From positions 1 to 49,314 of the forward strand of contig JAWACY010000003.1 of the NCBI GenBank assembly GCA_038896535.1: a stretch of DNA of 49,314 nucleotides, in the 5' to 3' direction. This DNA comes from Candidatus Anstonellales archaeon. Its GTDB lineage: Archaea; Micrarchaeota; Micrarchaeia; Anstonellales; J096. The translations under genes were made by a program, and so were the position numbers. The notes beneath the pieces are model-generated. The model saw only the letters and a list, made by a program, of their open reading frames with translations. It was not told the DNA's origin and did no database searches. Numbering within the stretch: the first letter of the stretch is position 1; every line of letters starts with the position of its first letter. This document shows, one piece after another, positions 7,081 through 48,451 of this stretch.

Positions 7081-10000
7081 TCAAGGCTGCTGGCTTTGGC
7101 TATTGCCACTCTGGCCACTCTGCGCATTGCCACCCTGCTCATTTTGGGTGTTTTGATTACCTGTATTGCCCCCTGTAGTGCCACCACCAGTATTATTAGG
7201 ATTTTGCTCTTCTGGTTTTTGCTTTTCAATTAGCTGTCTTAATTCTTCTAATGGAGGTCCCCATGCTTCATTTAATTTGTATTTTGTTTTTTCTATTTCA
7301 TACCTTGCCATTTCTATTGACTTCTTTAATTCTGGATACCCGCCCCCGAATTTTTCAGTTTGTTCAAGCATATACTCTATTTTCCCAAGACTATTATTTG
7401 AAACATTTTCTATTTCACCACTTTTTACCGTATTAATAGGGACATTTGCTAATGATGAGGTCATACCAAAAGGCTGTGCTGCTTGAGGGAATACAGTATT
7501 GGCATAAATTGTACACTCATTCCCATTTTCTCTTGGTAAGCAAGAGCCATAAGCATTAGATAAATTAAGTGGATGAGAAAACTGTAATTCATTTTCTTTA
7601 TAATCTGGGAGATATTGTACAGTATAGCCACTTTCTAATCTTTTTAATTTAACTGGTTTAATTTCCATACTACTGCCAATCTCAAATGTTCCATTTGAAG
7701 CTTCTACTGTTTCTTTATCTACTGTTTCTTTATTTTCCTTTTCCATTTTGTTGTACTTTATTGATTCTACACTTCCAGCATAATTGTTCAATCGCTGATT
7801 ATTTAAAGCATTCCGAAATCCACCCATTATATATTGAAGCCTTTCCCTCTGTTGCTGATCATCTATTTTAATTTCATTGCCTCCAGCATCTTTTATTTTT
7901 ATTCCTTCTTCGGCTTGTTCAATTGTATAAGAGGCAGTGGAAGTTTGAATAGTAACGCCCCTCCCTCTTCCCACTTCTATTGATCGGATCTCATCTGGTT
8001 TAATTGGACTGTTAGGTAATTTTGATAATTCTTCAGTTAAATCTCTAACTTCATCTCTTATGGAATAATTTGTTCTTTCATATTCTTCTCTTAATTTTTC
8101 AACTTCTTTTCCTAATCCTATAGCAACCCTGCCATAACGCAATTCAGGGCTGCCAGTAGCAGGGTCAAATTTTATATCAACTTTATCTTCTTGCCCATCC
8201 TTTTTTATTATTTGTACTTCAATTCTTGTTTGCCCATTTTCTGTTCTAAATTGATACCCTAAAACCTTAGCCCCTTCCAGCTCTGGGCTAGCAGTAACAA
8301 TTGCATTTTGTATTCCCTTTATATTTTCTTCGTAACGTTCTCTCTCATATTTAGCTCCTACCAAAGAAGAAAGAATACGTTGTTCAATAACAAGCCTTTC
8401 AACGGGGTTTTCAATTCCACTAAGAGCGCCACTAAGAGCGTCTTTTATATCTATTTTTCTCTCACCTATAGTTAATTTATCTGGACTGCCCTCTTTATCA
8501 AATGTTATATAACCAGTTTCAGTTCTTCCATCTTTATTTGTAATTGTAATTCTAATCCTTGTTTCTCCATTAAAGGTTTCAAAATCATTATATGAGATCG
8601 CCTGTACTCCTTTTAAGCCATAGGCCTCAGATTGAGAAAGAAATCTAAATAAGTCTTTAATAGCATAAGAAGCAATCTCATCATGAATCATACTGCCCTG
8701 TTCTACGCTTTTTACTCTTCCATTATCTAAATAATATACTGAATTTGGAGTTAAGTTTGCATTTGGTGGAATGTTCTCTGATTCTATCCTATATTTACCC
8801 CCATCAGTGGTAGTTACATATAAAGATAATTTTCCATTTTCATCCCTTTTATATTCTATCTTTTCTATTTCGGTTGGATTTAAATAATTTACATAATTAC
8901 CATTTTTAGTAATGGTTCTTGCTATTGCAAAAACATTTGGGTCTGACATATTGTATGGATTTATAAAGTCAATTTTGCCATTGTCACCGAACTTAAGAGT
9001 GTCAGTCTTTAATGCAGATAAAATTAAAAGATATTCTGCTGGCAGATCTAGTTGAGCTATTGTTGTTTGAAGTGATTGATTTCCAATATTAAATGTTATG
9101 CCATCTCTGATATTGTAATCAACATTAAAATAGTGTGTCTCTTCAACCCTCTCTTTAAGATTAGTAAAAAATGGATTTGTGTAAGTAATTGAATGGCCCG
9201 ATATTTTTAGATCTCTTGCGAATATAATCTCAACCAAATTCTTTTCATCTTCATTATTAAATGTTACTTGCCTTGTTTTTCCATCCGCTTCTATATTTAA
9301 ACTCAAACCATTTTGAGATGTTAATTTATATACTTTTCCTTCAGTAGTTGTTATAATTACTACTCCTCCATCATTTTTCATCTCTACAATATTGTGCGCA
9401 TCAATTCCAAGGACTTGTGCAGCTGTTGAGCGTTGTACAGCTTCCTCATTAAGATGTATCACTTCCTCAACTGATCTGTAAGTTTTCCCATTTAAAGTAA
9501 TTGAACCTCCGCCCTCAAATTTACCGTCTTTTAATTGCCCTTCTATATTAATCTCTGTTGAACCATATATACTCCATGAAGAAATTGTTCTACTATATTT
9601 CTCAGCATTAGTTATGGCTACGCTTGTTGTACCATATTGGCTATCTGTTATATCAACTTTCATGTATTTTCCATTCCCAAAGTCAATTCTATAACTACCC
9701 TTGCTAGATTCTATATTTACTTTTGAGAGTGTGATTTCTCCATTGTCATTAAGCCCTATTTGGTTTGTGAAAAATATACCTCCACCAGCATCATTTATTA
9801 CTGCTCCAATACTTTTTTTCCCATCAGCTTCGCTTATGATATAAGCTGATGTATTATCATCTAAATTTGTTCCGGTAACAAAAATTTTCTTGCCGACTAT
9901 GTCTTTTGGCACGTCAGAAGGCAATTCAATAACTGCAAGTCCATCGCCAATTTTTAATATTCTCTTTCCATCCTTTTCTTCAATTGTAGATGCTATTTGC

Positions 10001-12375
10001 ATATTACCATTTACAAACTTCATACTTTGTAGTTGCTGTCCCTGTATTTGTGAAATAGTATTATTTTTTGTATCAATTGTAAAACCAAGGCCAATATTTT
10101 CACCATAAGCCCGCCAGCCAACAATACTAACGTTGTTAATTCTAATTATTCTTAAATTTTCGCTATGCAAGAGACTTTCAACAACGCCATCACTAAAGAA
10201 CTTGTTACCTCTTAGTTCCCCTAAACTCTTTGTATTTAATATTCCAACAACAGTCTCTTGATCAGATGAAATTGTTTTAGTTAAGGCACTAGCATTCTCT
10301 GGGTTTTTTAAAAACTCTAATATTTTTCCTTGATCTCCCCCTTTAACTAAATCTAAAAATTTCTTTTCTATCTCTGTTCTTTGTGATTCTGGTTTAGATT
10401 CTATAATTTGTTTTAGCGCTGATGCCATTAATTCAGTATTACCATGCTGTCGTGCTTTATTTAATTCTTCAATTAGTTTTATTCTGTTATCCAATGTTTC
10501 TAAAAACTTCATAACTGCTTGAGCAACAACCATTATTTGCCCACGCTCACTTTCTGGCAATAAGTCAGGTTTACCTAATAGAAATTTTATTCTTTCTCTT
10601 GACGTTGCTTCACTCCATTTTTTTCCCTTACTTTGCTTTTCAAACTCCTCCTGTAATTTAGGATCCTTCCCTATTTTATCTCCTATATCATTAAGTGTTT
10701 GCTCTAATTGTTTAATTAATGATTCCGCTTGTTCACCCAATTCCTTACGTAAAAGCTCTTTTTCTTGTTCAGTTGGTTCGTTTTTTTGACCTATTTTTCC
10801 ATTAGCATTTTCTGCATTTTCGGTATCTTTTTTGATTTCTATCTTATCGGTTAAATCAACAATTACGGAAACCAAAGCATCAAAATCTTTTTTAAATTTT
10901 ATATAAGTTGTATACCACCAAGAGCCACCATAAATAGCTAAAATAATAATAAGGCCATGTAAAAGCCCTGCTAAAGCATTTTTAATAGCTGCGCTTTTTG
11001 GCTCACCACCTGTAGCCTGCTTTACAAAATTTGCCGTAATTTGAGAAAACGAGAACTCTCTTGGTATATCTATTTTCTTTTCCATTGCACTCTTTATTAT
11101 CTCTTCCTCAGCTTTTTCAAGAGGATTTTTGCCTTCTTTGTCCCCTATAAGCCTGCCACTGGCAAATGAAATAAGGCCTCCTGGTGTTGAGAATTGCCTA
11201 GCAACTTTTTCAGCTGCAACAATCTTGGTTAAAATATTTGATTGTTTGACCACTCCAGCTGGCGTAGCCCCGCCAGTTCCACCTGAAGATCCTGGTGCAA
11301 CAGCGCTTCCTAACCCGCCAGCTTGTTGTGCTTTGCCCTCCCCTGCCTTACCTCCCCCGGTTTGTTGTTCGCCTTCTCCTTCACCGCTGCCTTGTTCTTT
11401 CTCCCCTTTTTTTCCACCACTTCCAATAACATTTTTTGCTAAGCCGTATAATCCGTAAAGCATGGCTCCAGCACCAAGACCAAGCCTTATTGCCCTCTCT
11501 GTTTTTGCAAGCGCTTTAGAGCCGAAAAGGTAGCCTTTTTTTTCAAAAGACAATCCAGCAGACCCAGGACTTATATACAACGGTTTTTTGCTACTTGCTT
11601 CTAATGTTAACCAAAAAAATGGATTGCTGCCAGATGCAATTGCCCCTGCAATTAAAAGGCCCAAAAATAATGTGCAAATGAATAAAGGCCAGAAGAAGTT
11701 TGTTTGAGTTAGTTGACCAAAAGATAAGCTTGATTTTGGCGGGTTTGGTGGGATAGTGCTGAAAGTTGCTGGAGACGGCACTATTTGACTTTTTCTCCCA
11801 TCGGGTCTAGGAATATAGCTTTCGTTAATATCGCAACTACCATTTAATATAGCATTATTCTGCCCAGTATTAGGGAAACATGGAATTTGCTCAGCACTAA
11901 TGCTGCCTAAATTATTAAGATTTGAAAATCGATCTCTCCATGCATTTAAATCATTATAATTATTCTCATTAAATCCAAGCGATTCGCCAACATAGCAAAA
12001 TTTTGTTACATTATAATAAGGCAATACAACTGTTAATGATGCATTCTCTAAATTATTGCCCCAATTTGTTAATAATTTTTCTTTACTCAATACTGCATAG
12101 CCATTTTCATTCCCTGTTATTCTATAAATGCATGGTTTTGCTTGATTGCACTCAATATTATTTATATTTACGCCAGAAATTAATACAAAGAATACAGGAT
12201 ATGCGACCTTTTTTAATGTACCATCAACAAAAGCAACAGCACCAAATGTTATTGTTTCTTTATCCTGGCTTATTACTATGCTTGTATAAACTGTTGGTCT
12301 AACATCAAGCGGGCAAGCAGCAAATATGAGATTGAAGAATAAAAGCAAAGCAAGGAAATATAAAGCTGGCTTCAT
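7081..12375 (-). CDS. Very large (1764 aa) membrane-anchored protein, unknown function
   Basis: N-terminal signal peptide, Cys/Asn-rich ~200 aa domain, TM ending GLLIAGAIASGSNPF, further hydrophobic segments near aa 300 and 470-490, Gly-rich linker, long charged/beta-rich C-terminal region, G/N/Q tail. Confidence 0.85.
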   Translation of the reverse strand: MKPALYFLALLLFFNLIFAACPLDVRPTVYTSIVISQDKETITFGAVAFVDGTLKKVAYPVFFVLISGVNINNIECNQAKPCIYRITGNENGYAVLSKEKLLTNWGNNLENASLTVVLPYYNVTKFCYVGESLGFNENNYNDLNAWRDRFSNLNNLGSISAEQIPCFPNTGQNNAILNGSCDINESYIPRPDGRKSQIVPSPATFSTIPPNPPKSSLSFGQLTQTNFFWPLFICTLFLGLLIAGAIASGSNPFFWLTLEASSKKPLYISPGSAGLSFEKKGYLFGSKALAKTERAIRLGLGAGAMLYGLYGLAKNVIGSGGKKGEKEQGSGEGEGEQQTGGGKAGEGKAQQAGGLGSAVAPGSSGGTGGATPAGVVKQSNILTKIVAAEKVARQFSTPGGLISFASGRLIGDKEGKNPLEKAEEEIIKSAMEKKIDIPREFSFSQITANFVKQATGGEPKSAAIKNALAGLLHGLIIILAIYGGSWWYTTYIKFKKDFDALVSVIVDLTDKIEIKKDTENAENANGKIGQKNEPTEQEKELLRKELGEQAESLIKQLEQTLNDIGDKIGKDPKLQEEFEKQSKGKKWSEATSRERIKFLLGKPDLLPESERGQIMVVAQAVMKFLETLDNRIKLIEELNKARQHGNTELMASALKQIIESKPESQRTEIEKKFLDLVKGGDQGKILEFLKNPENASALTKTISSDQETVVGILNTKSLGELRGNKFFSDGVVESLLHSENLRIIRINNVSIVGWRAYGENIGLGFTIDTKNNTISQIQGQQLQSMKFVNGNMQIASTIEEKDGKRILKIGDGLAVIELPSDVPKDIVGKKIFVTGTNLDDNTSAYIISEADGKKSIGAVINDAGGGIFFTNQIGLNDNGEITLSKVNIESSKGSYRIDFGNGKYMKVDITDSQYGTTSVAITNAEKYSRTISSWSIYGSTEINIEGQLKDGKFEGGGSITLNGKTYRSVEEVIHLNEEAVQRSTAAQVLGIDAHNIVEMKNDGGVVIITTTEGKVYKLTSQNGLSLNIEADGKTRQVTFNNEDEKNLVEIIFARDLKISGHSITYTNPFFTNLKERVEETHYFNVDYNIRDGITFNIGNQSLQTTIAQLDLPAEYLLILSALKTDTLKFGDNGKIDFINPYNMSDPNVFAIARTITKNGNYVNYLNPTEIEKIEYKRDENGKLSLYVTTTDGGKYRIESENIPPNANLTPNSVYYLDNGRVKSVEQGSMIHDEIASYAIKDLFRFLSQSEAYGLKGVQAISYNDFETFNGETRIRITITNKDGRTETGYITFDKEGSPDKLTIGERKIDIKDALSGALSGIENPVERLVIEQRILSSLVGAKYERERYEENIKGIQNAIVTASPELEGAKVLGYQFRTENGQTRIEVQIIKKDGQEDKVDIKFDPATGSPELRYGRVAIGLGKEVEKLREEYERTNYSIRDEVRDLTEELSKLPNSPIKPDEIRSIEVGRGRGVTIQTSTASYTIEQAEEGIKIKDAGGNEIKIDDQQQRERLQYIMGGFRNALNNQRLNNYAGSVESIKYNKMEKENKETVDKETVEASNGTFEIGSSMEIKPVKLKRLESGYTVQYLPDYKENELQFSHPLNLSNAYGSCLPRENGNECTIYANTVFPQAAQPFGMTSSLANVPINTVKSGEIENVSNNSLGKIEYMLEQTEKFGGGYPELKKSIEMARYEIEKTKYKLNEAWGPPLEELRQLIEKQKPEEQNPNNTGGGTTGGNTGNQNTQNEQGGNAQSGQSGNSQSQQP

Positions 12376-12394
12376 GAAATAATTAAAGAAAAAC

Positions 12395-12402
12395 TTTTTA
12401 AA
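12395..12402. promoter_or_regulatory. Putative shared bidirectional TATA box for the envelope locus
   Basis: TTTTTAAA at the midpoint (12399) between ATG 12375 (-) and ATG 12423 (+). Confidence 0.6.
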
Positions 12403-12422
12403 TGGCTTGTCTATATTTTTTT

Positions 12423-13544
12423 ATGTCATCTGACTGGTGTACAATCGGAACTGGTGATATAATTTCTGCTGCTGGTATTGCTGGATTAGCTGGTGTTATT
12501 GGCGTTATGTATATTGTAATTGAAGACATGCTTGGAAGGATAACTAATCCACAACACAACACTGAAAGAATGAAATCAGAGGTAAGGAGTATTCTTGCAG
12601 GAGGCGTAGTAGTTGCTGTTTTACTATCTTTTCTTACTACATTTGGTGGTAGTATAGGAACAGTTTTTGATAATTACAATACAAGCACATCAGATTATTT
12701 AAATAATATGACTAATGTGATAAATAAAGCTTCTGTTCTTACTGCATATATGACTGATTTAGCTCCTTATTCTTATACACAACAAGAGAGTTTTATAGTT
12801 AAACATGGCTATGCAAGATCAAATATTCTTGTATTCTTAAAACAACTAGTTGGGGATATGAATACGATTTTAGAAGCATTATACAATTTATGGGCAATAA
12901 GACAGGCTAGCATTTATTTTATTTGTTTTGCTATTGGCGCTAGTTTTAAGTATTTAATGCCTGCTGGTATAATATTAAGATTTTTCCCACCAACAAAAAA
13001 AGTTGGCTCAACATTTTTATCTATCTCTGTTGGAGTTATATTCTTTATGCCTGTTGCATTTTACTTATCACATAAAATAATTGAGGGGATAATGCCTATC
13101 AGAAATTGGGATGATATGAGTAATATGGGGGGGCTTGAGGATAAAATAAAAATTATGTTAAGTAAAGCTTTAATACCATTTACTGTTATGACACATCCAG
13201 GAGCGGCATTTTCATATGGCCTTGCTTCTGTTGGAGAAATTGCATTAAATGCTGTTGCCCCTGGCTTAGGGCCAGTAATTCATGGTGGTTTTGTCTTCTA
13301 TGCAAAATCTATTATAAGCATAATAACTATAGCTAATTATTTAGCAATAAAGGGCAATGTTGACAATGTTATGGACCTTGGCTCTTCAGGGCTTAAAGAA
13401 TTGACGGATTTTTCCATAAAAGAGCATCTTAAGACCATTTTATTCTTTTTATTGTCAGTATTATCAACATTCGTTTCAATAAGGTCAATCTCATTATTAT
13501 TGGGAGGTGAGTTCTTTTTGTATGGCATTCAAGAAAGGATTTAG
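12423..13544 (+). CDS. CedA/VirB6-like membrane protein, paralog 1
   Basis: N-terminal TM-amphipathic-TM (RMKSEVRSIL), core MPAGIILRFFPPTKKVGSTFLSISVGVIFFMP, C-terminal SISLLLGGE. Start ATG 12423 preferred over 12402. Confidence 0.6.
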   Translation: MSSDWCTIGTGDIISAAGIAGLAGVIGVMYIVIEDMLGRITNPQHNTERMKSEVRSILAGGVVVAVLLSFLTTFGGSIGTVFDNYNTSTSDYLNNMTNVINKASVLTAYMTDLAPYSYTQQESFIVKHGYARSNILVFLKQLVGDMNTILEALYNLWAIRQASIYFICFAIGASFKYLMPAGIILRFFPPTKKVGSTFLSISVGVIFFMPVAFYLSHKIIEGIMPIRNWDDMSNMGGLEDKIKIMLSKALIPFTVMTHPGAAFSYGLASVGEIALNAVAPGLGPVIHGGFVFYAKSIISIITIANYLAIKGNVDNVMDLGSSGLKELTDFSIKEHLKTILFFLLSVLSTFVSIRSISLLLGGEFFLYGIQERI

Positions 13545-14658
13545 CATATTTATATTTGCTCTTTTTGCGCTATGCATTTTATTTACAGCAGAGCAAAGTC
13601 AGTTAAAACCAGAAGAACTTGTTTTTAAAGAAGCAAGCCCAATGATGTTTGTTTTAATTGGCCTTTCTCTAGCCATAATAATTGCAGTCTATTTATTAGG
13701 AATATTAACAAAAAATGATGAATGGATATTTTTAGCAAAAAAGGAAGCATGGCAGCTTGCTTTGACTATTGCTTTAGTTATAATATATACTGGCATAATA
13801 TACTTCACTATTAATTCATTTTTACAAACTCTCCAATTTTCAGATGCTGACTCAGTTAAGGATTATGTAATAAAAAATCTTCAGGAAAAAGAAAAAGAAA
13901 TAACAGCAAGCGTACAAACAGGCATTCAGAAGCAATATGAATATTTAATTAAAGGAACAACTATTGTGCCTGCAATAGCATTAAATTTAAATCCGGCATT
14001 TTTAGCATATGTGATTTTTGGGAATCCTGCTACTATTATTAGGACAGCTACAGCAACATTAGCTTGTTTGTCTGGTCCATTATCAGCAATTCCAATTGTC
14101 GGGCAAATACTTTTAGCTTTATGCATAGCACTTAATATAATTCTTACGATCTTAAATACAGCAGCAGCAAATATGCTTACCTTTTCATTTATGACAGATT
14201 ACAATTTTCTTTTTTATTCTCAAATAATGGAACAGTTCTTGGGCAGGTATGCTACTTTGATAGAGAATTCTTTAATTCCATTTAGAATAATAATATCATT
14301 TTATTTCTCTTCTGTTGCCCCAGTATTACCAATCATGGCAATATTGCTCAGGCTTTTCCCTCCAACAAGAAAGGCAGGAAATTTTGTTTTTACAATAGCA
14401 ATAGCATTCGGAGCAGTTTTCTTGTTTTTGCTAGCTGCCCTGTATAAAAGTTATGACTCAATTTCTCCTGTTAATGATTTCTGCTCTGGAATAGAGAGGT
14501 CATTTCAATTTGGTCCTTTGAGTTCATGCACAGATAATTTAAATTTACCAAAAATTGTTTATTATATCCCTTTAATTACAGTTATTCCATACATAGCATT
14601 TTCAATATCCCTGACATTTGCACAGAACTTCAATAAGATTTTTGATTATTTTGAGTGA
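13522..14658 (+). CDS. CedA/VirB6-like membrane protein, paralog 2
   Basis: LAKKEAWQL and core PIMAILLRLFPPTRKAGNFVFTIAIAF. SD-like GGAGGTGA upstream of ATG 13522 (track start 13507). Confidence 0.6.
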   Translation: MAFKKGFSIFIFALFALCILFTAEQSQLKPEELVFKEASPMMFVLIGLSLAIIIAVYLLGILTKNDEWIFLAKKEAWQLALTIALVIIYTGIIYFTINSFLQTLQFSDADSVKDYVIKNLQEKEKEITASVQTGIQKQYEYLIKGTTIVPAIALNLNPAFLAYVIFGNPATIIRTATATLACLSGPLSAIPIVGQILLALCIALNIILTILNTAAANMLTFSFMTDYNFLFYSQIMEQFLGRYATLIENSLIPFRIIISFYFSSVAPVLPIMAILLRLFPPTRKAGNFVFTIAIAFGAVFLFLLAALYKSYDSISPVNDFCSGIERSFQFGPLSSCTDNLNLPKIVYYIPLITVIPYIAFSISLTFAQNFNKIFDYFE

Positions 14659-14662
14659 TAAT

Positions 14663-17290: not shown

Positions 17291-17294
17291 GAAA

Positions 17295-18380
17295 ATGACA
17301 GTTTTAACAATAGTTGCAATTTTAGTAGTAATTGCAATTAGCTTTTATACAGCTATTTATTTACTCGGCAGAATTTTTAATGCCAGAAATGTCATGCAGA
17401 TTGCTATTACTAATGGGGCAGATGCTTTATTTACAATTGTTTTAGCATATATACTTATATTACTTGTTAAAGATGGCGATGCAGGGATTTTAAGCAAATC
17501 AGCAGTTTATTTTGTTAATGCAACTGTTGGTGGCATTGATAGCGCTGCTGGAGATAATTTAACACTCCAATATCAGAAATTTTACAATAGAACTTATAAT
17601 AATGTAACAAATATGCTTTTTGATATAAGTGATAGATTATTAACAATAGGGAATAGAAAAATTGGAGGAATGACTTACCAATTTTCTGGTGGCGCTTCTG
17701 ATAGTCTTGGAGCATTGACTGATATCGCTGGTGGGATAGAAGCTGGTAAAGAGGGAGGCGCTTCAATTGGCAGTGGATTAACTAAGGCAGTAACAGGCAT
17801 GATTCCATCAACATCTAATGCTATTGGTTTTGGCGGCGCATATAGTGTTGCTGCTAGGAGATTAACAATATTACACACTCATTTATCCTCTCTTCATGGG
17901 CTTCTAATTTATATAAATGAATTAAAAGGGCTTTTAACTGTAAATGCTATAACATTTTTAATAGTTGCAGGGGCAATTATGAGAATATTATTAATAGGCA
18001 AGGGAGGTGGATCATTTTTGATGGCTATGGGGTTATCTTTATACATTATATTGCCTGCCAGCCTTCTTTTTGGCTTTGCTTTAATTCAAAGGGCTATGAC
18101 CGATTTGAGTTTGAGTTGGAATGCTATACCAGATTTGCCAGAAGAAGAGCATATAGGTTATTATTATTTAGATGATTATTCAAAGCCAATGTCAACAAAA
18201 GCGCTTGATACGTTCAAATTAGATACAAATGCAGCAAAAACAATATTCCTAATATTTGCTTATGTTATGGTTATATCACTTTCTCTTTTAGCAGTTATAA
18301 GTACATCAGCAGGTTTGTCATCATTATTTGGTGCTGAAGTGGGCATATGGCTTATTGCTCAAATAGGGAGGTTAGCTTAA
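17295..18380 (+). CDS. CedA/VirB6-like membrane protein, paralog 4
   Basis: IAITNGADAL, core AGAIMRILLIGKGGGSFLMAMGLSLYIILP, C-terminal GLSSLFGAE. Confidence 0.6.
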   Translation: MTVLTIVAILVVIAISFYTAIYLLGRIFNARNVMQIAITNGADALFTIVLAYILILLVKDGDAGILSKSAVYFVNATVGGIDSAAGDNLTLQYQKFYNRTYNNVTNMLFDISDRLLTIGNRKIGGMTYQFSGGASDSLGALTDIAGGIEAGKEGGASIGSGLTKAVTGMIPSTSNAIGFGGAYSVAARRLTILHTHLSSLHGLLIYINELKGLLTVNAITFLIVAGAIMRILLIGKGGGSFLMAMGLSLYIILPASLLFGFALIQRAMTDLSLSWNAIPDLPEEEHIGYYYLDDYSKPMSTKALDTFKLDTNAAKTIFLIFAYVMVISLSLLAVISTSAGLSSLFGAEVGIWLIAQIGRLA

Positions 18381-19535
18381 ATGGTCACATGTAATGCAAT
18401 AACTTTAGATATGTCGATTTTTGGCTTCTCCATTATTCTGGGCTTTTTATTTATATTAATACGTTATTTATTTGCTGAAGTTGCAAATGATGAAAGAGGC
18501 AAGATGGAAGCTAAATATTTGACAGGAGAGCTTATATTGTCTATAATAATAGTTTTGTTCATGGCAGCCATATTAAATCATGCAACAAGTCAAACCGATA
18601 ATAATAATGTATTCATAGCTTTAGTAAATAATGTTTCTTCCTCTGTTTCTTCTTCGTCTCAACAAAATTTAGCCTCATTTGGCACTTCCCAATCAGGCAG
18701 TTTAACATGCAAGGCATTGGCTTATTTAAAGAATATGTCTGCAAATGCTATGGATTTATATAAGGCTAACTTATGGGCAGCAATGGTTGCTGGCCAGCTA
18801 TCGACATTTACTTATAGTATAAATGCTGCAATAGCGTTTACAGAATACATATCAATAAATCTTAATGATTTAAGGCCGATGGGATATTTAGGGAAGAATT
18901 TAGAAAAAGAGTTTTCCAGCCAAGCTTCAAATATTCTAAATGTTGCTGTATTGCCTTTAATATCACAATTTTATATTTTAATGCTTTTTGTTAATAATGA
19001 GCTTCTTAAGCTTTTCCCATTGATTATATTGTTTAGAGTTATACCAGTATTTAAAGGTTTTGCAAATGTTTTATTCTCTGTTATTGTATCATTTGTTATT
19101 GTTATGCCATTAATAATATATGCAGAGAGTTTTATTTTTAAGTTAGATAATTTAAATGTTAATAGCATTACTGAGTATACTGATAACTTAAATGCCTTCT
19201 CCATAGTTTTAAATAAGCCAGTAAAAGAAGCAGTCGAGATATCAAAAGGCGTTATTTCTCAAAGTTGGCCTCTAGGCAGTGAATCAAATCCTTTAACATT
19301 ATATTTGGAGGATGTGTATTTCAAGGTTGATAAGGATAATAAAGTATTTAAGTTTAGAGATAAAGCATTAATTAAATATGATGAGCTTATGAAAAAGAAT
19401 GCAAGAGTCATTGTTGCAGCAGCATTTTTGAGTGCTATAAACATTATTGCTCTTGTTGTTTCTATAAGGTCTCTGCAGCTTTTATTTGGCGATACAACAG
19501 AAAACTTATTTGAGATGTTTATGAGGTGGGTTTAA
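18381..19535 (+). CDS. CedA/VirB6-like membrane protein, paralog 5
   Basis: MEAKYLTGEL, core PLIILFRVIPVFKGFANVLFSVIVSFVIVMP, C-terminal SIRSLQLLFGD. Confidence 0.55.
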   Translation: MVTCNAITLDMSIFGFSIILGFLFILIRYLFAEVANDERGKMEAKYLTGELILSIIIVLFMAAILNHATSQTDNNNVFIALVNNVSSSVSSSSQQNLASFGTSQSGSLTCKALAYLKNMSANAMDLYKANLWAAMVAGQLSTFTYSINAAIAFTEYISINLNDLRPMGYLGKNLEKEFSSQASNILNVAVLPLISQFYILMLFVNNELLKLFPLIILFRVIPVFKGFANVLFSVIVSFVIVMPLIIYAESFIFKLDNLNVNSITEYTDNLNAFSIVLNKPVKEAVEISKGVISQSWPLGSESNPLTLYLEDVYFKVDKDNKVFKFRDKALIKYDELMKKNARVIVAAAFLSAINIIALVVSIRSLQLLFGDTTENLFEMFMRWV

Positions 19536-20602
19536 TGGCAGGCAGTGAAGGAATATCAATATTTAATTTTGCACAAAACTTTGGAAGCGGGACATATGAT
19601 TATTTCTTAACATTTGCTGCAATAGGCTTTGTAATATCTTTGGTATTCAATATAATAAGATATATGCTTACATTTTTAATGGCTGATGAGCAAGCAAGAC
19701 AAAAGACAAAAGCAAGCATTATTACTTCTGTTGCAACTGGCTTTTTTGTCTTTTTACTAGTTGTTCTTCTTGGTTTTATTGAAGAGCAAATACCAAAAAT
19801 GTTTGGTTTAGATGGTTATGGAGCATTTTTAAATTCAATACCAGAAGAGATAAATAGTGCTAATGATAAACTTAATGAAATTAGAGATGCATATGTAAAA
19901 AGACTTGAAAGCTCTTATAACAAATTCTCATCACAAACATCTGTTTTTGGAGTAACAGTTTCTACTGCAGGATGTGATTTTGGTATAAATACAGCATTAG
20001 ATGTTGAAACATGTATGGGTAACATACAAAGAGAAATAGCAGAACAGACAGTAGTAATATCAACAGCATTCAATACGCAAATATCATTAATAGTTGGCAA
20101 TACTTTATTTGATTTTTTCACAACAAGGGCAGCAGCATTTTTGCTAGGAGCAGGGCTTGCTTATTATGCATTTGACCCATCTAGAAGTGCTGGAGCAGCT
20201 ATGATATCATTAGCATTAGCAGCATTTTATGTTTACCCAGTTGCTTATAAAGCATTTATGGACTTACCAAAACCACCCGATTTAGGAGGAGCAACAGCAA
20301 ATGTTATTGACATAGCAAGTGCTCAGTTTTGCAATATAAATACTTTCCCTTCAACATACATAACAAAGAGCGATGCAACATTAAGCATTACATTAGCACA
20401 ATCTGGGAAGACACCAAACCCAACAATATCTATTGAAACTGGCAGCGTAATATCATTTATAAATAGTTTGTATTTATCATTTTTGATGAAACATGCAGCA
20501 GCATTAGCAGTTTCAATGATATTTATACAAAATTCTTATGTAGTGCTGTCATCTGGTTTTATAGCAGCTCCATTGTTGAGGAGGATTGGTGGGTTCTTAT
20601 GA
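19535..20602 (+). CDS. CedA/VirB6-like membrane protein, paralog 6
   Basis: QKTKASIITS and core GAGLAYYAFDPSRSAGAAMISLALAAFYVYP. TAATG overlap with the previous gene (track start 19526). Confidence 0.55.
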   Translation: MAGSEGISIFNFAQNFGSGTYDYFLTFAAIGFVISLVFNIIRYMLTFLMADEQARQKTKASIITSVATGFFVFLLVVLLGFIEEQIPKMFGLDGYGAFLNSIPEEINSANDKLNEIRDAYVKRLESSYNKFSSQTSVFGVTVSTAGCDFGINTALDVETCMGNIQREIAEQTVVISTAFNTQISLIVGNTLFDFFTTRAAAFLLGAGLAYYAFDPSRSAGAAMISLALAAFYVYPVAYKAFMDLPKPPDLGGATANVIDIASAQFCNINTFPSTYITKSDATLSITLAQSGKTPNPTISIETGSVISFINSLYLSFLMKHAAALAVSMIFIQNSYVVLSSGFIAAPLLRRIGGFL

Positions 20603-23600
20603 AAAGGGCTTTAATAATATTATTTTTTCTTATACTGTTTTTTGCTGGCTGCCTTCAGCAAGCTTCACAAAGCAGAGATATTATTGGTTCTTTATGTGTT
20701 AAAAATTCTATTATACAAGCAGGCGCATCTTGTACTGATAAAAGATATTTTGAGCTTTCTCCTTCATTAAAAAATATAATAGGGGATAAAACATGTACTT
20801 TAAGCTCAATAGAGTGTAATCAAGCTGAGGTTAATGAAAATTTATTATGCAATGTTACCCTAGATATTGATGGAAACATGAATAAATATGAAAATATATC
20901 AATATGCGGTTCTATTTTAGAAGGCAGTATTTGTGGGGCCGGCTGCAGAGTTGTTGCTTGCAGTTATGATTTATTCAAAAGAGCTACAAAAGAGCCACCA
21001 TCAGTGCTTAGCCCTGCAGATACTGCTGAAGGAAAAGTTAGAAATATAACAGAAGTTTTGAATGCTACATTTGGAGAGAAAATAAACAGACTTTATAATA
21101 TAAGTGCATCTGGAAGTGCGCTTTATTCTTTGATGGGTAAGGCATGCAGCCTTTTTGAAATATCAAAAGAAAATTATCCATTTTTAACAGACCCTAAGAC
21201 AAGAATATTGAGCTTTCGCATAGGAGTTTCTGGCTATGACTCATTTAAGACATTATCTGCTTATACACCATTTTCTTCAGAACAGTGTTCAATAAACCTA
21301 GCAGGGTTCGTTGATGCTATGACATCTTATTACTTTAAAAATCCAAATAATTGCAGGGTTGTTTACTTTAATGGCAGCGCTATTAAACCACTTCTTAATG
21401 CTGCTCAAAACTCAATAGCAGAGGATTTAAATGAGAATTATTTTTACATGTATAACTGCACAACAGGGAAAAATGCTGGAAAAATATTCTCACGTTATAT
21501 AGATTGCGAACTATCATGTTTAAGTGATGGTCAAGTAAATACTCCTTATAAAGGAAATATAGTCTATCCTTCAGAAGATGTTTGCAAATATGGGCAATTA
21601 ACAGGCCAGTCATTGGCAAGAGAATTTCTTAACTATAGCAATGTTATAAATCAAAGTTATAAAATAGGAACTAAAGACCTAAGCTCTTTACTTACAGATA
21701 TTTTTAGGGCTCATCCTGATATGAGTGTGTCAAAATCAAGTTTTGAACAAGGCGGGTATAGAATGGGGGCTTTGCCTTTTGAATGCACTAGTAATATTGA
21801 ATGCTTATCTGGCTTTTGCGATTTTAGTTTGCATAATAGAGTCACATTAGTCAATTCTTCTGGCCTTTATAATTATATGGAATTCATAACAAGTCCTGAA
21901 GGAAGCAGCCAAGGCCCACCACCAGTTTTATCAGCCTTCCAGCATTTAATTGGCAATCCTGGATGCTGGTTAACTGAGACTAATACTAATACTGGTAGTG
22001 AGGGTCCATTAACATGTGTACCAAACATGCCAGTAAGCTATAGAGATAAAGTATTTACTACAAGACAGGAATACTTTAATGCTGTTTCTAATCAGCAAAT
22101 AAGCTGTATCAAAAGGGTTGTTGAAACAACATCTATGACTAATCCGTTATTTTTCCCATCTTATTATATTGATGATTATGGATTTCACCCAAAAACCCCT
22201 GATGTTGTTTCTTATACTGTCTTAGCCCCAGAGTATAATGATTATTTAGGTTTATTTTTTAATAGCACTGCTTTTGGAAATAATCAAGACCTACCAAATG
22301 CATCAGCAGGGAGATGGGCTTGGGGCATGGATTTAACATATTACAAGTTTGATAGATGCAGTTATACAGAAGGTAATTCAATAAAAGCAAAAACAGTTTT
22401 TAAGAAAATTTCAAATGGCCCGATGGCCGGAATGGGAATGGTCGCTATACCAATAGATAGTAATACAGCAGTTCTTGGCGATACATTATTCCCTATTTTC
22501 GGTTATCCAGACGTACCAAGCTATTTCACTTATGATGTTGGAGAAATGGCAAAAACTGTCACATTTTACGATTACCCTTTTGATGATGTAGATACACTTT
22601 TGGCAAGTGCTAAACTTTCTACCTCGGCATATAGGGACGTTTCCTTTTTTGGTAGTGTGTCAAGAATGTACCCATTCATATATAACAATAGTATAAATTT
22701 TTATTACTATTATCCGATAACTGACTTAAATTGGGGTTTTTCAGAGGCCTTTGTGGCTTTTAGAAATGTATCGCCAAATTGGCTTTGTAGGGCTGGTTGG
22801 GATATACCCGGACCAAGAGGATACGAAAATTCAACCATGATAGCAAATTCAACAGCATGTCTTGGTATTAATGGTGACAGAATTGATACAGATCCGCTAG
22901 TTCAAGCACGATATTTTGACTTGCGATATAGAAGTCATAGACAGGCATTTATAGAGAGAATGGGCGGGAAAGATCGGATTTGTAACCTAGTTCCCGGTGA
23001 GGATAGGCAGCCAAATTGCCGTGATTCAATCGATAGGTTCATAAATAATGGGGGTGATGAGATAATTTTGGGAAATAGTAATGATTATACTGATATTGCG
23101 TTTAGAATTAAAACTGGTGGTGCGGTGTGCTGTACTGGAACTGCGGCTGACTGTGCTGATTTTAAGGGTATTATATCAATACCAGGAGATAGAATTATGA
23201 TAGAAGTAAGTTGGACGCATGACGCGGGGGGGCTTGGACAAGACTATACTAAGAGGCAATGTATTCCAAATGCATCTAATGGCGAGTATTTATATAGGGT
23301 TTCTGCTCTTGCTTCTGATATTGATCCTTATTATAGTTATGTTGCTGGTAGTAGTTCTGACTCCAATTATTATTTGGTTAAGGTTCAGCCCGGAATTATT
23401 TATTCTTATCAGTATGAACACTTCGGGGATATCGGAAATGGCTCATATGGCAAACATAATGGTGACAATCCACCCAATGTTATAATAGATGATGAGACTT
23501 ATATTAATATTGATGGTATGACTGGTTATGGTTATAGGGCAATTTGTGGCCCTCATTATGATATTTATAATCTTGGCTTACCAAATGCGTTTATGTACTC

Positions 23601-26600
23601 TCGAGAAAACTTTGCTCATCAGTCTAATTGTATTAGTTTAGGCACAATAAATAACGAACCTTTTGTATATATGCCATTTTCTTTTATAACTTATAATGAT
23701 ACTGCTCCTATGAAATTAGGACCTCTAAACCCTTATAGATTGGGAGTTTATGGGTTTAAAGTTACAAATCCAAAAACAAGTCCGCGAGTAAGATGGGTAC
23801 CGGTAGCACCAGTAGAAAAGACTTTCCCTGAATTTTTCCAAGATTTAGACAAACTTAATGAAAATATTAATTATGAGCTATCATATTCAGATTATGCTGG
23901 TGGCTTCCAGCTTGGTAGGGTGTGTAACATAAAGAATTATATGCCTAATAAAAATATTGGCGGAGCAAAGGCAACTTATTACTCAGGAGTTACCCCTACT
24001 ACAACATCTTCTACTGTGCCAGAATCGAGCACTGATCCAGTTTATAGAGATAATAGCCTTCAAGTTGTTTATGATCCTAGCAGTAAAGCTGACATATCTG
24101 GACTTCAACAAAATCTCCCAAGTTATATTAGAAGAGTAACGTTAAAAAATAATGGTAATTACTATATAGAGGCATATGTATGTTTTAATCCATATGTATT
24201 GAGTGCTCAGGGCACTTCATCAATAGCACCAGGTTTTTATTATCCGCCCTCAACTTTTATTAATAGTGCTTATGGACCACTTATTGACCGATATATTTTT
24301 TTAGAACCCCCATGTGATCAGCTTACTATAAAAGATTATTGTATGGATGCTGATTGTAGTGAAATGTATACTTCAATGGCTGTATTTGTCTATAATCATA
24401 GTGCTGCCAGAATAGAAACACCCTTTGGCAATTACTCAACATTTGGTGATTGCTTGGTTGATGATAATGGAAATTTAGTTAAATCAAATGTTGGAGCATG
24501 CCAGAGTTGTAGCTTTATTAATGCTTATGAAGATAGTAGAGATAATAATAATATTCAGCCAGGACAAGTTCAGTCAGCTCTTGATATGGGGGCTTTGCCA
24601 ATATTAACAAATTACGTTCCAAGTTCACCATTAGATTATTCAGTAAGAGGCGGGCCAACAGGTATATTTTTAACAGATTATAATAATGCTAAAACAACAA
24701 AAGATAACTGCCCTGAATGCATGATATTAACAAATAACCCATCTCAATTGCTAATTGGGACTTTTGGCCCTATATTCCCTACTCTGTTATATGATACAAG
24801 TGTAATAACTGCAACAATAAATTCTGGAGATGTATTAAGAGCTACGTTTGATGCTTTGAATAATAGCCAGCTTGCAGGTATGGCAAGAGCATGGAAAGTG
24901 CCAGCAATATTAAAATTAGATATTTCAAGCACTATATTCACTAACCCGGCATATTGGCTAAATTTCTCAGCAAATTATAGGGATGACCTTGTTAATGCTG
25001 GAATAGGAGGGATAATAATATCAGGTAATTTAGATACAATAATAACAAATTTCTGCGCATATGAAAAATCTTTCAGGACTTTAACTGGCAGAGAAGTATC
25101 TTATGTTCTTGGCAGGAAGCCAGTTGTTCCTAATGAAACGCTTTACCAGGCAGAAAGGCCATTTGAAGTTAAAAATAAAAGGAGCCTATCATCAATACCG
25201 CAATCTTTATGCGTTAATGCTTCATGGTTTTACAATAATAATTACAGCGTTGTCTGCTATACAAAATCACAGGATAATAAGCTTATAGTAAGGAGCTTAT
25301 CCCCTGGAAATGCAACTCAATACTTTAATGATACACTGCTTTATGACGTTTATGCCCCGATAATAGGAAGCGTATCAAGGAATTCTGGTATATATACATG
25401 TAAATATGCTTATAATGAAACTGGTGGAGCTGTTCCACTTTATACATACGATTTAGTGCCCTCAACCGATATATTTGGCGAAGCCCCTATTTTAGTTCCA
25501 AACGATACAAATGTTGCATGCTTCCAAGAACCATTAAGGCAAATAGACATATTAAGACTCACAGGCCAAACTTTAGAAAATCTCAATTGCTATGCTAGAA
25601 AAGGTTGTTGCAGGGATACAATGGATATAGAAGGAGACCCAGCAAAATACATATGCGAAAATGAATTGAATGGTTACTATAATGAAAGCTCGGGCCTTTG
25701 TTATTGGCAAACAATAAATGTTAGTTGTAATTACGCAACCAATATTAATTGCTGGAACAATACTAGGCTAATACCACAATGTACTTTAGCAAGCACAAAT
25801 CAAGAATGTTGGAATACAGTAATTCAGGCAAACAGCTTTACTAGAGATTTATATGGAAACTTTTTCCCCTATCCAAACGACTTTTATCAATTCTATTTAC
25901 AACAACTAAGTATAACTAATGAAACTTTAAATATTTATGACGCTTTAGGTTCTTCTCACCCAAATAATAATTATTTGTATATTGGACCAACATTAGCAAC
26001 ACAATCTGACGGAGCAATAAGTTATAACCCACCGATATATTTTGAAAGTAGTAATGCTGTGAATGATAGTGCTAGACAAAGATTTCAGCAACTAAATAAT
26101 TATATACTAAGTAGGCTACAAAGCCTGGGAAGCATTGGTGCTTTTGAAACGTATAATAATTTAAGTACGTTCAATACAAATTTAGGGAATAAATGGACAG
26201 GTTATTACAATAATATATACATAAATGTAAAATGGTGCCCTGCTGGTTATCAAAATTCAGATCTTCGTTTTAATCAAAATGCTCCTTTTAAGCAAAGGGT
26301 AACTGGTAATTTATGCTTCAAAGACTTAAAAACCCTGGAACAACTTTGTCCAGGAACTGAACACGGTTATAGTAGGGTTATCAGATCTGGCAGCAACAAC
26401 TATTGTGGGAGTGACATAAAATCTCCAAAGTATATATGTGAAAATGAAAGAAACGGACAAGGTTTATGGATCAGTAGAAATCCTAATGATCCTGATTGGA
26501 TAGGGACATGCTATAATAGAGGTAATCCAAAAACTGCGGAGGAGCTTTTATGTCCATCAACAACTACTTGTCCATCTCCAGTAATAACGCAACCACCACA

Positions 26601-26742
26601 ACAACCAAAACAGAGGCCGGATATTGTTATATCATTAGGAGAGGAGCAGATAGAAGGAACTGGTGGGGCAATAACAGGAGAACAACAAGGAGGAGGAGAA
26701 GGGGCAGAAAATAGGCCGAATATAGAATTAGAAATAATTTAA
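20599..26742 (+). CDS. Giant (2047 aa) Cys-rich secreted/lipoprotein-like surface protein
   Basis: MKR + hydrophobic stretch + FAGC lipobox-like motif, very many Cys and N-x-S/T sequons, ATGA overlap with the upstream gene. Confidence 0.85.
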   Translation: MKRALIILFFLILFFAGCLQQASQSRDIIGSLCVKNSIIQAGASCTDKRYFELSPSLKNIIGDKTCTLSSIECNQAEVNENLLCNVTLDIDGNMNKYENISICGSILEGSICGAGCRVVACSYDLFKRATKEPPSVLSPADTAEGKVRNITEVLNATFGEKINRLYNISASGSALYSLMGKACSLFEISKENYPFLTDPKTRILSFRIGVSGYDSFKTLSAYTPFSSEQCSINLAGFVDAMTSYYFKNPNNCRVVYFNGSAIKPLLNAAQNSIAEDLNENYFYMYNCTTGKNAGKIFSRYIDCELSCLSDGQVNTPYKGNIVYPSEDVCKYGQLTGQSLAREFLNYSNVINQSYKIGTKDLSSLLTDIFRAHPDMSVSKSSFEQGGYRMGALPFECTSNIECLSGFCDFSLHNRVTLVNSSGLYNYMEFITSPEGSSQGPPPVLSAFQHLIGNPGCWLTETNTNTGSEGPLTCVPNMPVSYRDKVFTTRQEYFNAVSNQQISCIKRVVETTSMTNPLFFPSYYIDDYGFHPKTPDVVSYTVLAPEYNDYLGLFFNSTAFGNNQDLPNASAGRWAWGMDLTYYKFDRCSYTEGNSIKAKTVFKKISNGPMAGMGMVAIPIDSNTAVLGDTLFPIFGYPDVPSYFTYDVGEMAKTVTFYDYPFDDVDTLLASAKLSTSAYRDVSFFGSVSRMYPFIYNNSINFYYYYPITDLNWGFSEAFVAFRNVSPNWLCRAGWDIPGPRGYENSTMIANSTACLGINGDRIDTDPLVQARYFDLRYRSHRQAFIERMGGKDRICNLVPGEDRQPNCRDSIDRFINNGGDEIILGNSNDYTDIAFRIKTGGAVCCTGTAADCADFKGIISIPGDRIMIEVSWTHDAGGLGQDYTKRQCIPNASNGEYLYRVSALASDIDPYYSYVAGSSSDSNYYLVKVQPGIIYSYQYEHFGDIGNGSYGKHNGDNPPNVIIDDETYINIDGMTGYGYRAICGPHYDIYNLGLPNAFMYSRENFAHQSNCISLGTINNEPFVYMPFSFITYNDTAPMKLGPLNPYRLGVYGFKVTNPKTSPRVRWVPVAPVEKTFPEFFQDLDKLNENINYELSYSDYAGGFQLGRVCNIKNYMPNKNIGGAKATYYSGVTPTTTSSTVPESSTDPVYRDNSLQVVYDPSSKADISGLQQNLPSYIRRVTLKNNGNYYIEAYVCFNPYVLSAQGTSSIAPGFYYPPSTFINSAYGPLIDRYIFLEPPCDQLTIKDYCMDADCSEMYTSMAVFVYNHSAARIETPFGNYSTFGDCLVDDNGNLVKSNVGACQSCSFINAYEDSRDNNNIQPGQVQSALDMGALPILTNYVPSSPLDYSVRGGPTGIFLTDYNNAKTTKDNCPECMILTNNPSQLLIGTFGPIFPTLLYDTSVITATINSGDVLRATFDALNNSQLAGMARAWKVPAILKLDISSTIFTNPAYWLNFSANYRDDLVNAGIGGIIISGNLDTIITNFCAYEKSFRTLTGREVSYVLGRKPVVPNETLYQAERPFEVKNKRSLSSIPQSLCVNASWFYNNNYSVVCYTKSQDNKLIVRSLSPGNATQYFNDTLLYDVYAPIIGSVSRNSGIYTCKYAYNETGGAVPLYTYDLVPSTDIFGEAPILVPNDTNVACFQEPLRQIDILRLTGQTLENLNCYARKGCCRDTMDIEGDPAKYICENELNGYYNESSGLCYWQTINVSCNYATNINCWNNTRLIPQCTLASTNQECWNTVIQANSFTRDLYGNFFPYPNDFYQFYLQQLSITNETLNIYDALGSSHPNNNYLYIGPTLATQSDGAISYNPPIYFESSNAVNDSARQRFQQLNNYILSRLQSLGSIGAFETYNNLSTFNTNLGNKWTGYYNNIYINVKWCPAGYQNSDLRFNQNAPFKQRVTGNLCFKDLKTLEQLCPGTEHGYSRVIRSGSNNYCGSDIKSPKYICENERNGQGLWISRNPNDPDWIGTCYNRGNPKTAEELLCPSTTTCPSPVITQPPQQPKQRPDIVISLGEEQIEGTGGAITGEQQGGGEGAENRPNIELEII

Positions 26743-47908: not shown

Positions 47909-48451
47909 TCATAACCCACTATCATTTCTGTTTCCATATTTTTTTATCTTCTCTAATAAAAGGTCTCTTATTTTTGTAGCGTTTTCTTCATTCAGCCCAT
48001 CTATATGGGCTAAAGGAGCAGATGTTTCAGCAGCAGTTGCTAAATGAACATCATATAGCCCAAATAATTTATCTAGAACATCTTGGTCTATATAAACATC
48101 CTGTATTCTGTAATAGGGAAACGATATCTGTGATTTAAACCAAACACCCTTTCTTATTATAATGCTATCTTCTTTTATATTGTAATAATACGTTTTGTAA
48201 TAAAGCTTTGAGTACCAATATGAGAATAATAAAAGCACAAAATAAAAAATAAGACAAAATGCCCCGGTAGTATAAACAAAATTAGCATTTATATTAATGA
48301 ATTGAATTAATGCTATAAATACGGTAGATAATAACATTGGTATTAATATGCCATAATATAAAAATGTTGATATTGTCTTCTTTATTATCTTATTCTTATG
48401 CAAAGGAATTTTAACACAAGTTGCTTCAGGATCTTGTTCAAATACCGGCAT
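47909..48451 (-). CDS. YdbS-like 2-TM plus bacterial PH (bPH_2) domain protein, copy 1
   Basis: IIRKGVWFKSQISFPYYRIQDVYIDQ...LFGL...HIDGL. SD GGTGG before ATG 48451 (track start 48469). Confidence 0.85.
   Translation of the reverse strand: MPVFEQDPEATCVKIPLHKNKIIKKTISTFLYYGILIPMLLSTVFIALIQFININANFVYTTGAFCLIFYFVLLLFSYWYSKLYYKTYYYNIKEDSIIIRKGVWFKSQISFPYYRIQDVYIDQDVLDKLFGLYDVHLATAAETSAPLAHIDGLNEENATKIRDLLLEKIKKYGNRNDSGL

Follow-up and report, generated by a model that had tools for sequence, protein, structure and literature searches.

What do six consecutive, mutually related membrane protein genes, bordered by two giant genes, do for an archaeon of the DPANN group? The question is raised by contig C3 of a Micrarchaeota (DPANN) genome (752 kb, 91%-complete, ~32% GC); the whole contig of 49,314 bp was analysed and is called the window here. 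The six paralog genes, p1 to p6, follow one another on the + strand at 12402-20602 (the sextet) and are succeeded by g7, which encodes a protein of 2047 amino acids (aa), while g0, encoding a 1764-aa membrane protein, lies head-to-head with p1. An earlier note on this DNA had assigned it to a DPANN archaeon, and the assignment holds, since its relatives are recorded as Candidatus Micrarchaeota, Anstonellales and Micrarchaeales. By what means DPANN archaea attach to their hosts and acquire the lipids, nucleotides and amino acids that they do not make themselves is, to our knowledge, an unsettled matter, and we know of no molecular machine assigned to these tasks in Micrarchaeota. Our answer is that the sextet probably supplies the VirB6/CedA-type component (channel or stalk base) of a chromosomal machine, so far undescribed, that resembles type IV secretion and the Ced/Ted systems. 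Three things make the family look VirB6/CedA-like: its fold, its topology and, above all, its gene context in relatives.

Pairwise BLAST among the six paralogs gives matches that are weak yet collinear in a core. A hidden Markov model (HMM) built from the paralogs matches exactly 12 of the 1843 open reading frames (ORFs) of at least 60 aa in the genome, namely the window sextet and six ORFs on contig C4. All 12 have one architecture in common, recognized by alignment, hydropathy and an AlphaFold2 (AF2) model: a first transmembrane helix (TM1), a loop and TM2; a helical ectodomain; TM3, an LRxFPPTRxxG loop and TM4; a variable ectodomain; and TM5 with an SxxLGGE...RLI tail. By alignment, the LRxFPPTRxxG loop and the LGGE tail are retained in each of the six window paralogs. 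The exclusive HMM matches, the collinear core and the common motifs confirm the shared architecture and paralogy that the earlier note had proposed. The second sextet, on C4 (locus L024, 1561-8646, - strand), encodes proteins of 326, 412, 407, 471, 321 and 428 aa; it is flanked by a Yip1-like gene and a GT4 glycosyltransferase gene, with neither a giant protein nor an ATPase encoded next to it.

Hydropathy places five TM helices in each paralog, in agreement with the helices of the AF2 model. Sequons and the Cys-rich insert of p3 fall in predicted outside loops, and basic residues in the short TM1-2 and TM3-4 loops, because of which the N-terminus is predicted to lie outside and the C-terminus inside. 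The p3 insert spans residues 293-850 of the 890-aa ORF, between TM4 and TM5, and holds 20 of 22 cysteines and nine sequons. An additional N-terminal hydrophobic, signal-like segment is present in p2, and the N-terminal hairpin of p6 is weakly pilin-like (T4SS_pilin, E 0.016; Mbov_0395 pilin-like, E 0.007). In the AF2 model of p1, built from 137 sequences (predicted local distance difference test score, pLDDT, 90.6; predicted template modelling score, pTM, 0.79), helices 54-120 and 290-367, both very long, are predicted to prolong TM segments into an outside bundle. In two proteins from the search of representatives, P0059 of 1461 aa and P0093 of 846 aa, the family domain follows right-handed beta-helix domains (NosD/Beta_helix) fused at the N-terminus, which fits a role as membrane base for exposed parts. 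A further protein, P0114 (968 aa), contains three matched stretches of the family.

The family extends through the phylum. Its profile matched 135 of 151 genomes (including the unpublished G080) and 72 of 85 genera, and the genes almost always come as a set of six whose order is fixed. At most 12 candidates were scored per genome, so copy numbers are lower bounds. A single-protein query matched 59 of 61 genomes, the own genome counted. Among representative clusters the profile returned 3353 at E<=1e-3 and 2933 at E<=1e-10, and the ESM Atlas label on family clusters is Microcaldota. Nineteen loci of relatives, selected for clustered family matches, comprise 16 with exactly six matching ORFs, one with seven and two cut by contig ends; in these relatives the cluster is conserved. 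Sextets neighbour housekeeping genes, among them those for a class II aminoacyl-tRNA synthetase (tRNA-synt_2 family), SurE, TBP, SecDF and the DNA polymerase small subunit. The sextet was found in DNA data of hot-spring metagenomes (two studies) only, with no RNA dataset listed.

Position within the sextet is conserved as well. A matrix of best-match positions between loci has diagonal counts of 160-241 and off-diagonal counts of 4-42; the best matches of p2 stand at position 2 in 11 of 17 loci, and those of p6 at position 6 in 10 of 17. A FastTree phylogeny of 77 rows, computed from the HMM match columns and weakly supported at depth, groups the proteins by position, and each of these positional clades contains both kinds of sextet. 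A whole sextet thus appears to have been duplicated; the C4 sextet is the canonical copy, and the window sextet, with its members on the longest branches of the tree, the diverged one. Positions 1, 2, 4 and 6 can be assigned to p1 (12402..13544, +; 380 aa; family HMM 7.7e-85), which groups with position-1 proteins, p2 (13522..14658, +; 378 aa from the ATG at 13522, the ORF opening at GTG 13507), p4 (17295..18380, +; 361 aa), which forms a clade with position-4 proteins at support 96, and p6 (19535..20602, +; 355 aa, the ORF opening at GTG 19526). The paralog with the Cys-rich ectodomain insert of ~560 aa, p3 (14663..17290, +; the ORF of 890 aa opening at TTG 14618), is ambiguous between positions 1 and 3, and p5 (18381..19535, +; 384 aa), for which assignment is weak, pairs on long branches with the position-5 protein of locus L036. 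A word-index homolog search with p1 found three close proteins, and BLAST of the sextets of other orders against the own-genome sextets gave 30-55 bits, too weak for positional assignment. The six genes are true, ancient, position-specific paralogs.

The connection with type IV secretion comes chiefly from other genes. A genome search for VirB4/CedB/HerA ATPases and VirB2-like pilins, as suggested by the earlier note, yielded a CedB/VirB4-like ATPase on contig C1 and pilin-like ORFs on C2. The ATPase (C1:332671-334251, 527 aa), the single one of its kind in the genome, has its best NCBIfam matches with CedB (6.5e-23), VirB4 of mycoplasma integrative and conjugative elements (ICEs; 3.1e-22), CedD and the CD1110 VirB4-like family, HerA models scoring lower. 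Its PDB sequence matches are ambiguous: HerA chains at E ~4e-8 over short stretches, and VirB4 (4AG5) at 1e-6 over 278 residues. Each of the 40 relatives searched has this ATPase too, at 57-80% identity, which makes 41 of 41 genomes when the own one is counted. The gene belongs to a conserved four-gene module at C1 331838-335490 (L046 8839-12491), made up of U278 (two N-terminal TMs and a soluble part), the ATPase, M168 (a membrane protein) and CC234 (a coiled-coil protein), with an HTH_17/excisionase-like gene upstream; M168 has weak matches to the mycoplasma ICE families MAG0920 and MAG1210. On C2, at 64162-64894 of the - strand, two pilin-like ORFs of ~124 aa lie in tandem; both encode a signal peptide and a two-helix hairpin like that of VirB2, and the pilin HMM matches them at E 0.0026 and 0.024.

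Relatives join these parts to the family itself. In second copies of the ATPase module, a solitary family member stands directly upstream of U278 and the ATPase at 11 of 22 loci. The solitary ATPase-linked members form one clade (support 99) and so constitute a seventh subfamily, whose gene is preceded by an ORF of ~80 aa encoding a charged loop flanked by two hydrophobic helices. Of nine such small ORFs, six match T4SS_pilin (E 4e-5 to 0.03, all below the cut-off), and one reaches 28.0 bits with TrbC/VirB2, for which the cut-off is 27.9. In three of five complete genomes from other orders (G134, G086 and G069) the sextet lies between pilin-like and ATPase genes, on one strand and tightly packed. 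The order there is pilin-like gene or genes, an ORF of ~119 aa (G134) or ~243-250 aa (G069, G086), the six family genes, two copies of U278 and the ATPase, followed by an ORF of ~99 aa (G134, G086), M168, CC234 and an ORF of ~690 aa. The ATPase ortholog of these genomes has 48-53% identity; the pilin model matches in G134 and G069 and not in G086. In the other two complete genomes, G090 and G082, the sextet is not beside the main ATPase. Encoding together with a VirB4 ATPase and a VirB2 pilin therefore holds for the family in relatives, the own-genome partners being on C1 and C2, outside the window. The sextets of the window's order are detached from the motor genes, and the ancestral operon is dispersed.

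Two further observations concern the ATPase module. In two relatives, the slot just before U278 and the ATPase is taken not by the solitary family gene but by an unnamed ORF, of 1486 aa (L098 8246-12706) or 1663 aa (L100 41-5032). The ~99-aa ORF right behind the ATPase gene (L117 15284-15583, L118 15373-15669) resembles the C-terminal end of the ATPase (26-36% identity).

Fold comparison points in the same direction. Compared by VIA-align with 48,161 PDB chains, the p1 model has TrwI/VirB6 (7o3v_F) as its second match (Z 9.4, root-mean-square deviation, rmsd, 6.3, 233 residues aligned, model residues 7-374), the top rank being a partial 106-residue bundle match (Z 11.0). Among the top chains from Foldseek, 8rt9_F comes first (Z 9.5, rmsd 6.1, 251/272 residues) and 8rtd_L has Z 9.4. 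For an ATPase-linked relative (L104), modelled independently with pLDDT 92.0, TrwI is likewise the best nearly full-length match (Z 9.6, rmsd 5.9, 233/261 residues), and DotA, the Dot/Icm protochannel, matches nearly the full length of both (p1, Z 8.0, 260 aligned; L104, Z 7.5). By Foldseek itself, R388 TrwI/VirB6 ranks third for p1 (E 0.046) and lies at E 0.05-0.09 across both models. As leads only, the nearest named folds to an ESM Atlas model are Bacillota TrbL_2 / VirB6 CD1112-family clusters (template modelling score 0.39-0.44), and an Atlas look-alike Micrarchaeota cluster carries Pfam CedA1 (PF27251) on 23% of its members.

The giant flanking proteins are as the earlier note had described them. 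At 7081..12375 on the - strand, g0 encodes a giant membrane protein of 1764 aa with a signal peptide, as read from sequence and hydropathy. Its conserved N-terminal ectodomain measures ~280 aa, a Gly-rich stretch separates the TMs at 225-251 and 461-486, and the C-terminal part is long and acidic; the protein matched no family of Pfam or NCBIfam. The operon ends in g7 (20599..26742, +), a Cys-rich, sequon-rich, lipoprotein-like giant of 2047 aa. It contains 66 Cys and 36 N-x-S/T sequons, carries a lipobox-like signal (...FFAGC) at the N-terminus and has no TM anchor. No Pfam family matched g7, and its three database homologs, of 2134-2827 aa, are all without a name. A homolog of g7 in G003 is on the same contig and strand as the p1 ortholog and downstream of it, and one of g0 in G002 is just upstream of the p1 ortholog and its sextet. 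Giant unnamed ORFs adjoin many sextets. Some large neighbours at first counted as giants were dropped as ordinary enzymes (P-type ATPase, PPDK, class I aminoacyl-tRNA synthetase). A role of g0 and g7 as adhesins is conceivable.

Several results weigh against the VirB6/CedA-type assignment. The TrwI/VirB6 Z scores of 9.4-9.6 are within 1 Z of unrelated helical proteins (a designed repeat at 9.4, F-BAR at 8.5, partial coiled-coil bundles at 9.6-11), and they lie below ~13, under which, by the advice given with the tool, a match may reflect a common arrangement in helical proteins; the fold likeness to VirB6 is for this reason suggestive, not decisive. Foldseek of both models against PDB gave nothing at E<=1e-3. 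Pfam TrbL (PF04610) and TrbL_2 (PF19478) matched none of the eight window proteins, nor any of sets of 42 and 122 members, and whole-genome scans with PF19478 and PF04610 did not touch the family. The NCBIfam CedA model (NF041796), which detected Sulfolobus acidocaldarius CedA as a control, matched neither the six paralogs nor anything in the whole genome at E<=10; its only match, at E 0.048 (cut-off 330 bits), was to the TM3-TM4 core of one solitary relative. By hhalign, the family reached a probability of 0.9% against a 37-sequence VirB6 profile and <1% against pTiC58 VirB6 alone, the only aligned stretch across the VirB6 comparisons being 15 non-collinear residues. Sequence searches of PDB at E<=10 yielded 0 matches for either family profile, and only 3 of 164 members scanned had a TrbC/T4SS_pilin match, a weak one, in the N-terminal hairpin. 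In the window's order, a scan of 64 flanking ORFs from the 19 loci and of the window's 26 remaining genes found neither an ATPase nor a pilin. As for the giants, the N-terminal 421 aa of g7 were found in 3 of 40 relatives and the N-terminal 290 aa of g0 in 4 of 40, in each case with two of the same genus; because these domains are detectable in few relatives, g0 and g7 evolve very fast. Weak BLAST matches in a small database connect the two proteins with giant, unnamed ORFs that neighbour sextets of other genera, and the wider kinship among giant ORFs that they suggest is accordingly tentative.

The likeness to CedA and VirB6 claimed at the outset thus stands in part: topology, gene context in relatives and a middling TrwI fold likeness favour it, and sequence and profile comparisons do not. 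In particular, the CedA-like motif that had been proposed for the paralogs found no support from the NCBIfam CedA, TrbL and TrbL_2 models or from the VirB6 hhalign comparison. As judged by sequence, the family is outside the CedA and TrbL families as now defined. The six paralogs, g0 and g7 have no significant Pfam or NCBIfam match, and the family has none in PDB by sequence. A literature search over the main texts of papers returned no paper on the family or on a type IV secretion system (T4SS)-like system in Micrarchaeota, and no description of a hetero-oligomeric VirB6-type assembly was found in those parts of the literature that were available as text.

If the assignment is right, one copy of each paralog would assemble into a hetero-oligomeric platform of VirB6 type. 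Its TM helices would sit in the membrane, and its long helices would form an outward bundle estimated at ~7-8 nm. The invariant LRxFPPTRxxG loop and LGGE...RLI tail, both on the predicted cytoplasmic side, may dock U278 and the hexameric ATPase encoded on C1. The window sextet would be the diverged second copy from the whole-sextet duplication, specialised to carry fast-evolving surface parts that would contact the host or partner cell: the Cys-rich p3 insert of 560 aa, the giant lipoprotein-like product of g7 and the membrane protein encoded by g0. Candidate cargoes are DNA, as in Ced, or proteins, or other molecules.

Other explanations have to accommodate the same evidence. The family could be T4SS-derived and the window copy no longer a transporter, serving as an envelope scaffold that anchors giant surface or S-layer-like proteins (g0, g7, the p3 insert). 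The window locus without ATPase or pilin, the long tree branches of its members, the giant unnamed ORFs flanking many sextets and the beta-helix surface domains fused N-terminally to the family domain in P0059 and P0093 would all suit such a scaffold, which we nevertheless consider unlikely: the loop and the tail kept in six window paralogs suggest that a cytoplasmic partner is still in use, and the ATPase module is kept in every one of the 40 relatives searched. More doubtful still is a stronger form of the transport reading, in which the six paralogs build a pseudo-six-fold portal derived from VirB6 and, with the giant Cys-rich proteins, give Micrarchaeota a conduit or docking complex on the symbiont side, for example as the 21-nm barrel of ARM-1. 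In the available part of the report on this cultured micrarchaeon, cryo-electron tomography showed a 21-nm envelope barrel of unidentified composition under the S-layer where host nanotubes enter (bioRxiv 10.1101/2024.05.20.594898). Were such a portal real, a T4SS relative would have been rebuilt as a hetero-hexameric machine for taking up material from the host cytoplasm.

It is very improbable that the sextet belongs to an unrelated polytopic membrane family, such as a transporter or a lipid- or glycan-handling complex, with a VirB6 likeness that reflects a common arrangement of long helices. Middling Z scores tied with F-BAR and designed helical proteins would be expected of such a family, as would the lack of any sequence or profile match to VirB6 or CedA. 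Opposed to this are TrwI/VirB6 as the best nearly full-length match of two members among 48,161 chains, with DotA matching both too, the repeated operon linkage with a VirB2-like pilin and a VirB4/CedB-like ATPase, and the fact that no Pfam transporter family matched among the window proteins and scanned members. A conjugation module of an integrated mobile element (ICE or plasmid), to which T4SS-like parts typical of ICEs and the HTH_17/excisionase-like gene upstream of the C1 module might point, is hardly credible, given sextets set among housekeeping genes, 64 flanking ORFs scanned at the 19 loci without an integrase, relaxase or coupling protein, 26 other window genes without an integrase or relaxase, a distribution over 135 of 151 genomes that is not patchy, and a GC content of the sextet locus that resembles the remainder of contig C3.

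Returning to the layout of the window, the six genes do abut or overlap much as had been noted. The p2/p3 and p3/p4 junctions have gaps of 4 nt, p4/p5 a gap of 0 (TAAATG), p5/p6 an overlap of 1 nt (TAATG) and p6/g7 an overlap of 4 nt (ATGA); p1/p2 departs from the description of gaps of 0-4 nt and short overlaps, being a 23-nt overlap when counted from the first ATG of p2. The six paralog genes are translationally coupled, and g7 is coupled to p6 through the ATGA overlap. The true start of p1 is likely the ATG at 12423, giving 373 aa, and the database gene call begins at residue 8. Between the start codons of g0 and p1 lies an AT-rich divergent spacer of 26 bp (12376..12401) that contains the near-palindromic TTTTTAAA; judging from its letters, TTTTTAAA is a possible TATA element serving both the g0 and p1 directions.

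The other 26 window genes are archaeal housekeeping genes or of unknown function, including those for primase large subunit, PIN_5, DUF63, glutamine synthetase and a class II aminoacyl-tRNA synthetase. At 5505-6956 (- strand) a 483-aa AAA+ protein, Mg-chelatase/MCM/sigma-54-like, is encoded; it has a P-loop region (30-85) and a second matched region (225-309), separated by ~140 residues that include a DUF7130-like stretch. A 1031-aa ORF without a Pfam family (30026-33121, -) adjoins a PRC-barrel gene and a TPR-AAA ATPase gene, and two adjacent genes for bPH_2 (bacterial PH domain) membrane proteins lie at 47909-48469 and 48748-49299, both on the - strand.

The family is a concrete, phylum-wide candidate for a machine of host contact and exchange in Micrarchaeota. 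It would be a chromosomal relative of type IV secretion whose channel subunit has been multiplied six-fold in a fixed order and which is here coupled to giant, fast-evolving surface proteins. If this is true, the story of Ced and Ted, in which archaea domesticated a T4SS, extends to DPANN and parallels the chromosomal T4SS of the ultrasmall Patescibacteria. The window adds to this a canonical and a diverged sextet in one genome, the tie of the diverged copy to giant Cys-rich proteins, and an ancestral operon that is dispersed in this order.

The closest known systems are Ced of the Sulfolobales (CedA, its paralog CedE, the CedA1 pilin and the CedB/CedD ATPases) and Ted of the Thermoproteales (TedA, TedC and TedB). 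Like these, the Micrarchaeota set is a chromosomal archaeal T4SS-like one that combines a VirB2-like pilin, a polytopic VirB6-like membrane protein and an ATPase of the VirB4/HerA clade, and the best NCBIfam match of the own-genome ATPase is CedB. Unlike Ced and Ted, which have one or two paralogs and belong to Thermoproteota, it has six fixed paralogs plus a seventh, ATPase-linked one, extra conserved partners (U278, M168 and CC234), giant surface proteins and a DPANN host lineage; unlike Ced, it gives no match to the NCBIfam CedA model. Ced works in DNA import with CedB; for the present family, co-occurrence with a CedB-like ATPase in the genome was observed. The accessible text of one study describes CedE as a structural homolog of VirB6 with five TM helices, proposes that CedA and CedE jointly form the Ced channel, and finds that CedB and CedD together resemble a split VirB4 (PMC11868833). 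Excerpts of another describe CedA and TedA as VirB6-like and the CedA N-terminus as resembling a pilin (PMC9905601).

Likeness to R388 TrwI/VirB6 (7O3V, 8RT9, 8RTD) takes the form of a nearly full-length structural match (Z 9.4-9.6, rmsd 5.9-6.3, 233-252 aligned). As in VirB6, the family proteins are polytopic, with long helices projecting from the membrane, five TMs and an N-out/C-in orientation that is predicted here. Jakubowski et al. reportedly arrived in 2004 at a VirB6 topology of five TMs with the N-terminus outside and the C-terminus inside. Unlike in other respects, the two have no sequence or profile similarity, and VirB6 is a homo-pentamer under VirB5 in a diderm envelope, whereas the present set consists of six different paralogs, belongs to an archaeal envelope and lacks VirB5, 7, 8, 9 and 10.

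Among small host-dependent cells, giant proteins of nanohaloarchaea carry VirB4-like domains, according to the portion of text available (PMC10266531). A closer parallel is the chromosomal T4SS of Patescibacteria (monoderm, MPF-FATA-like), which is likewise conserved in ultrasmall host-dependent cells and likewise has tandem arrays of diverged paralogs of one component. As far as the available text of the source goes, relaxases are absent from most of these genomes, the system is reported as essential for epibiotic growth in one strain, and the arrays are of pilins (PMC12102498). The Patescibacteria system is bacterial, its amplified component, in the same partial account, is the VirB2 pilin and its VirB6 is recognisable by HMM, whereas in Micrarchaeota it is the VirB6-like component that has been amplified.

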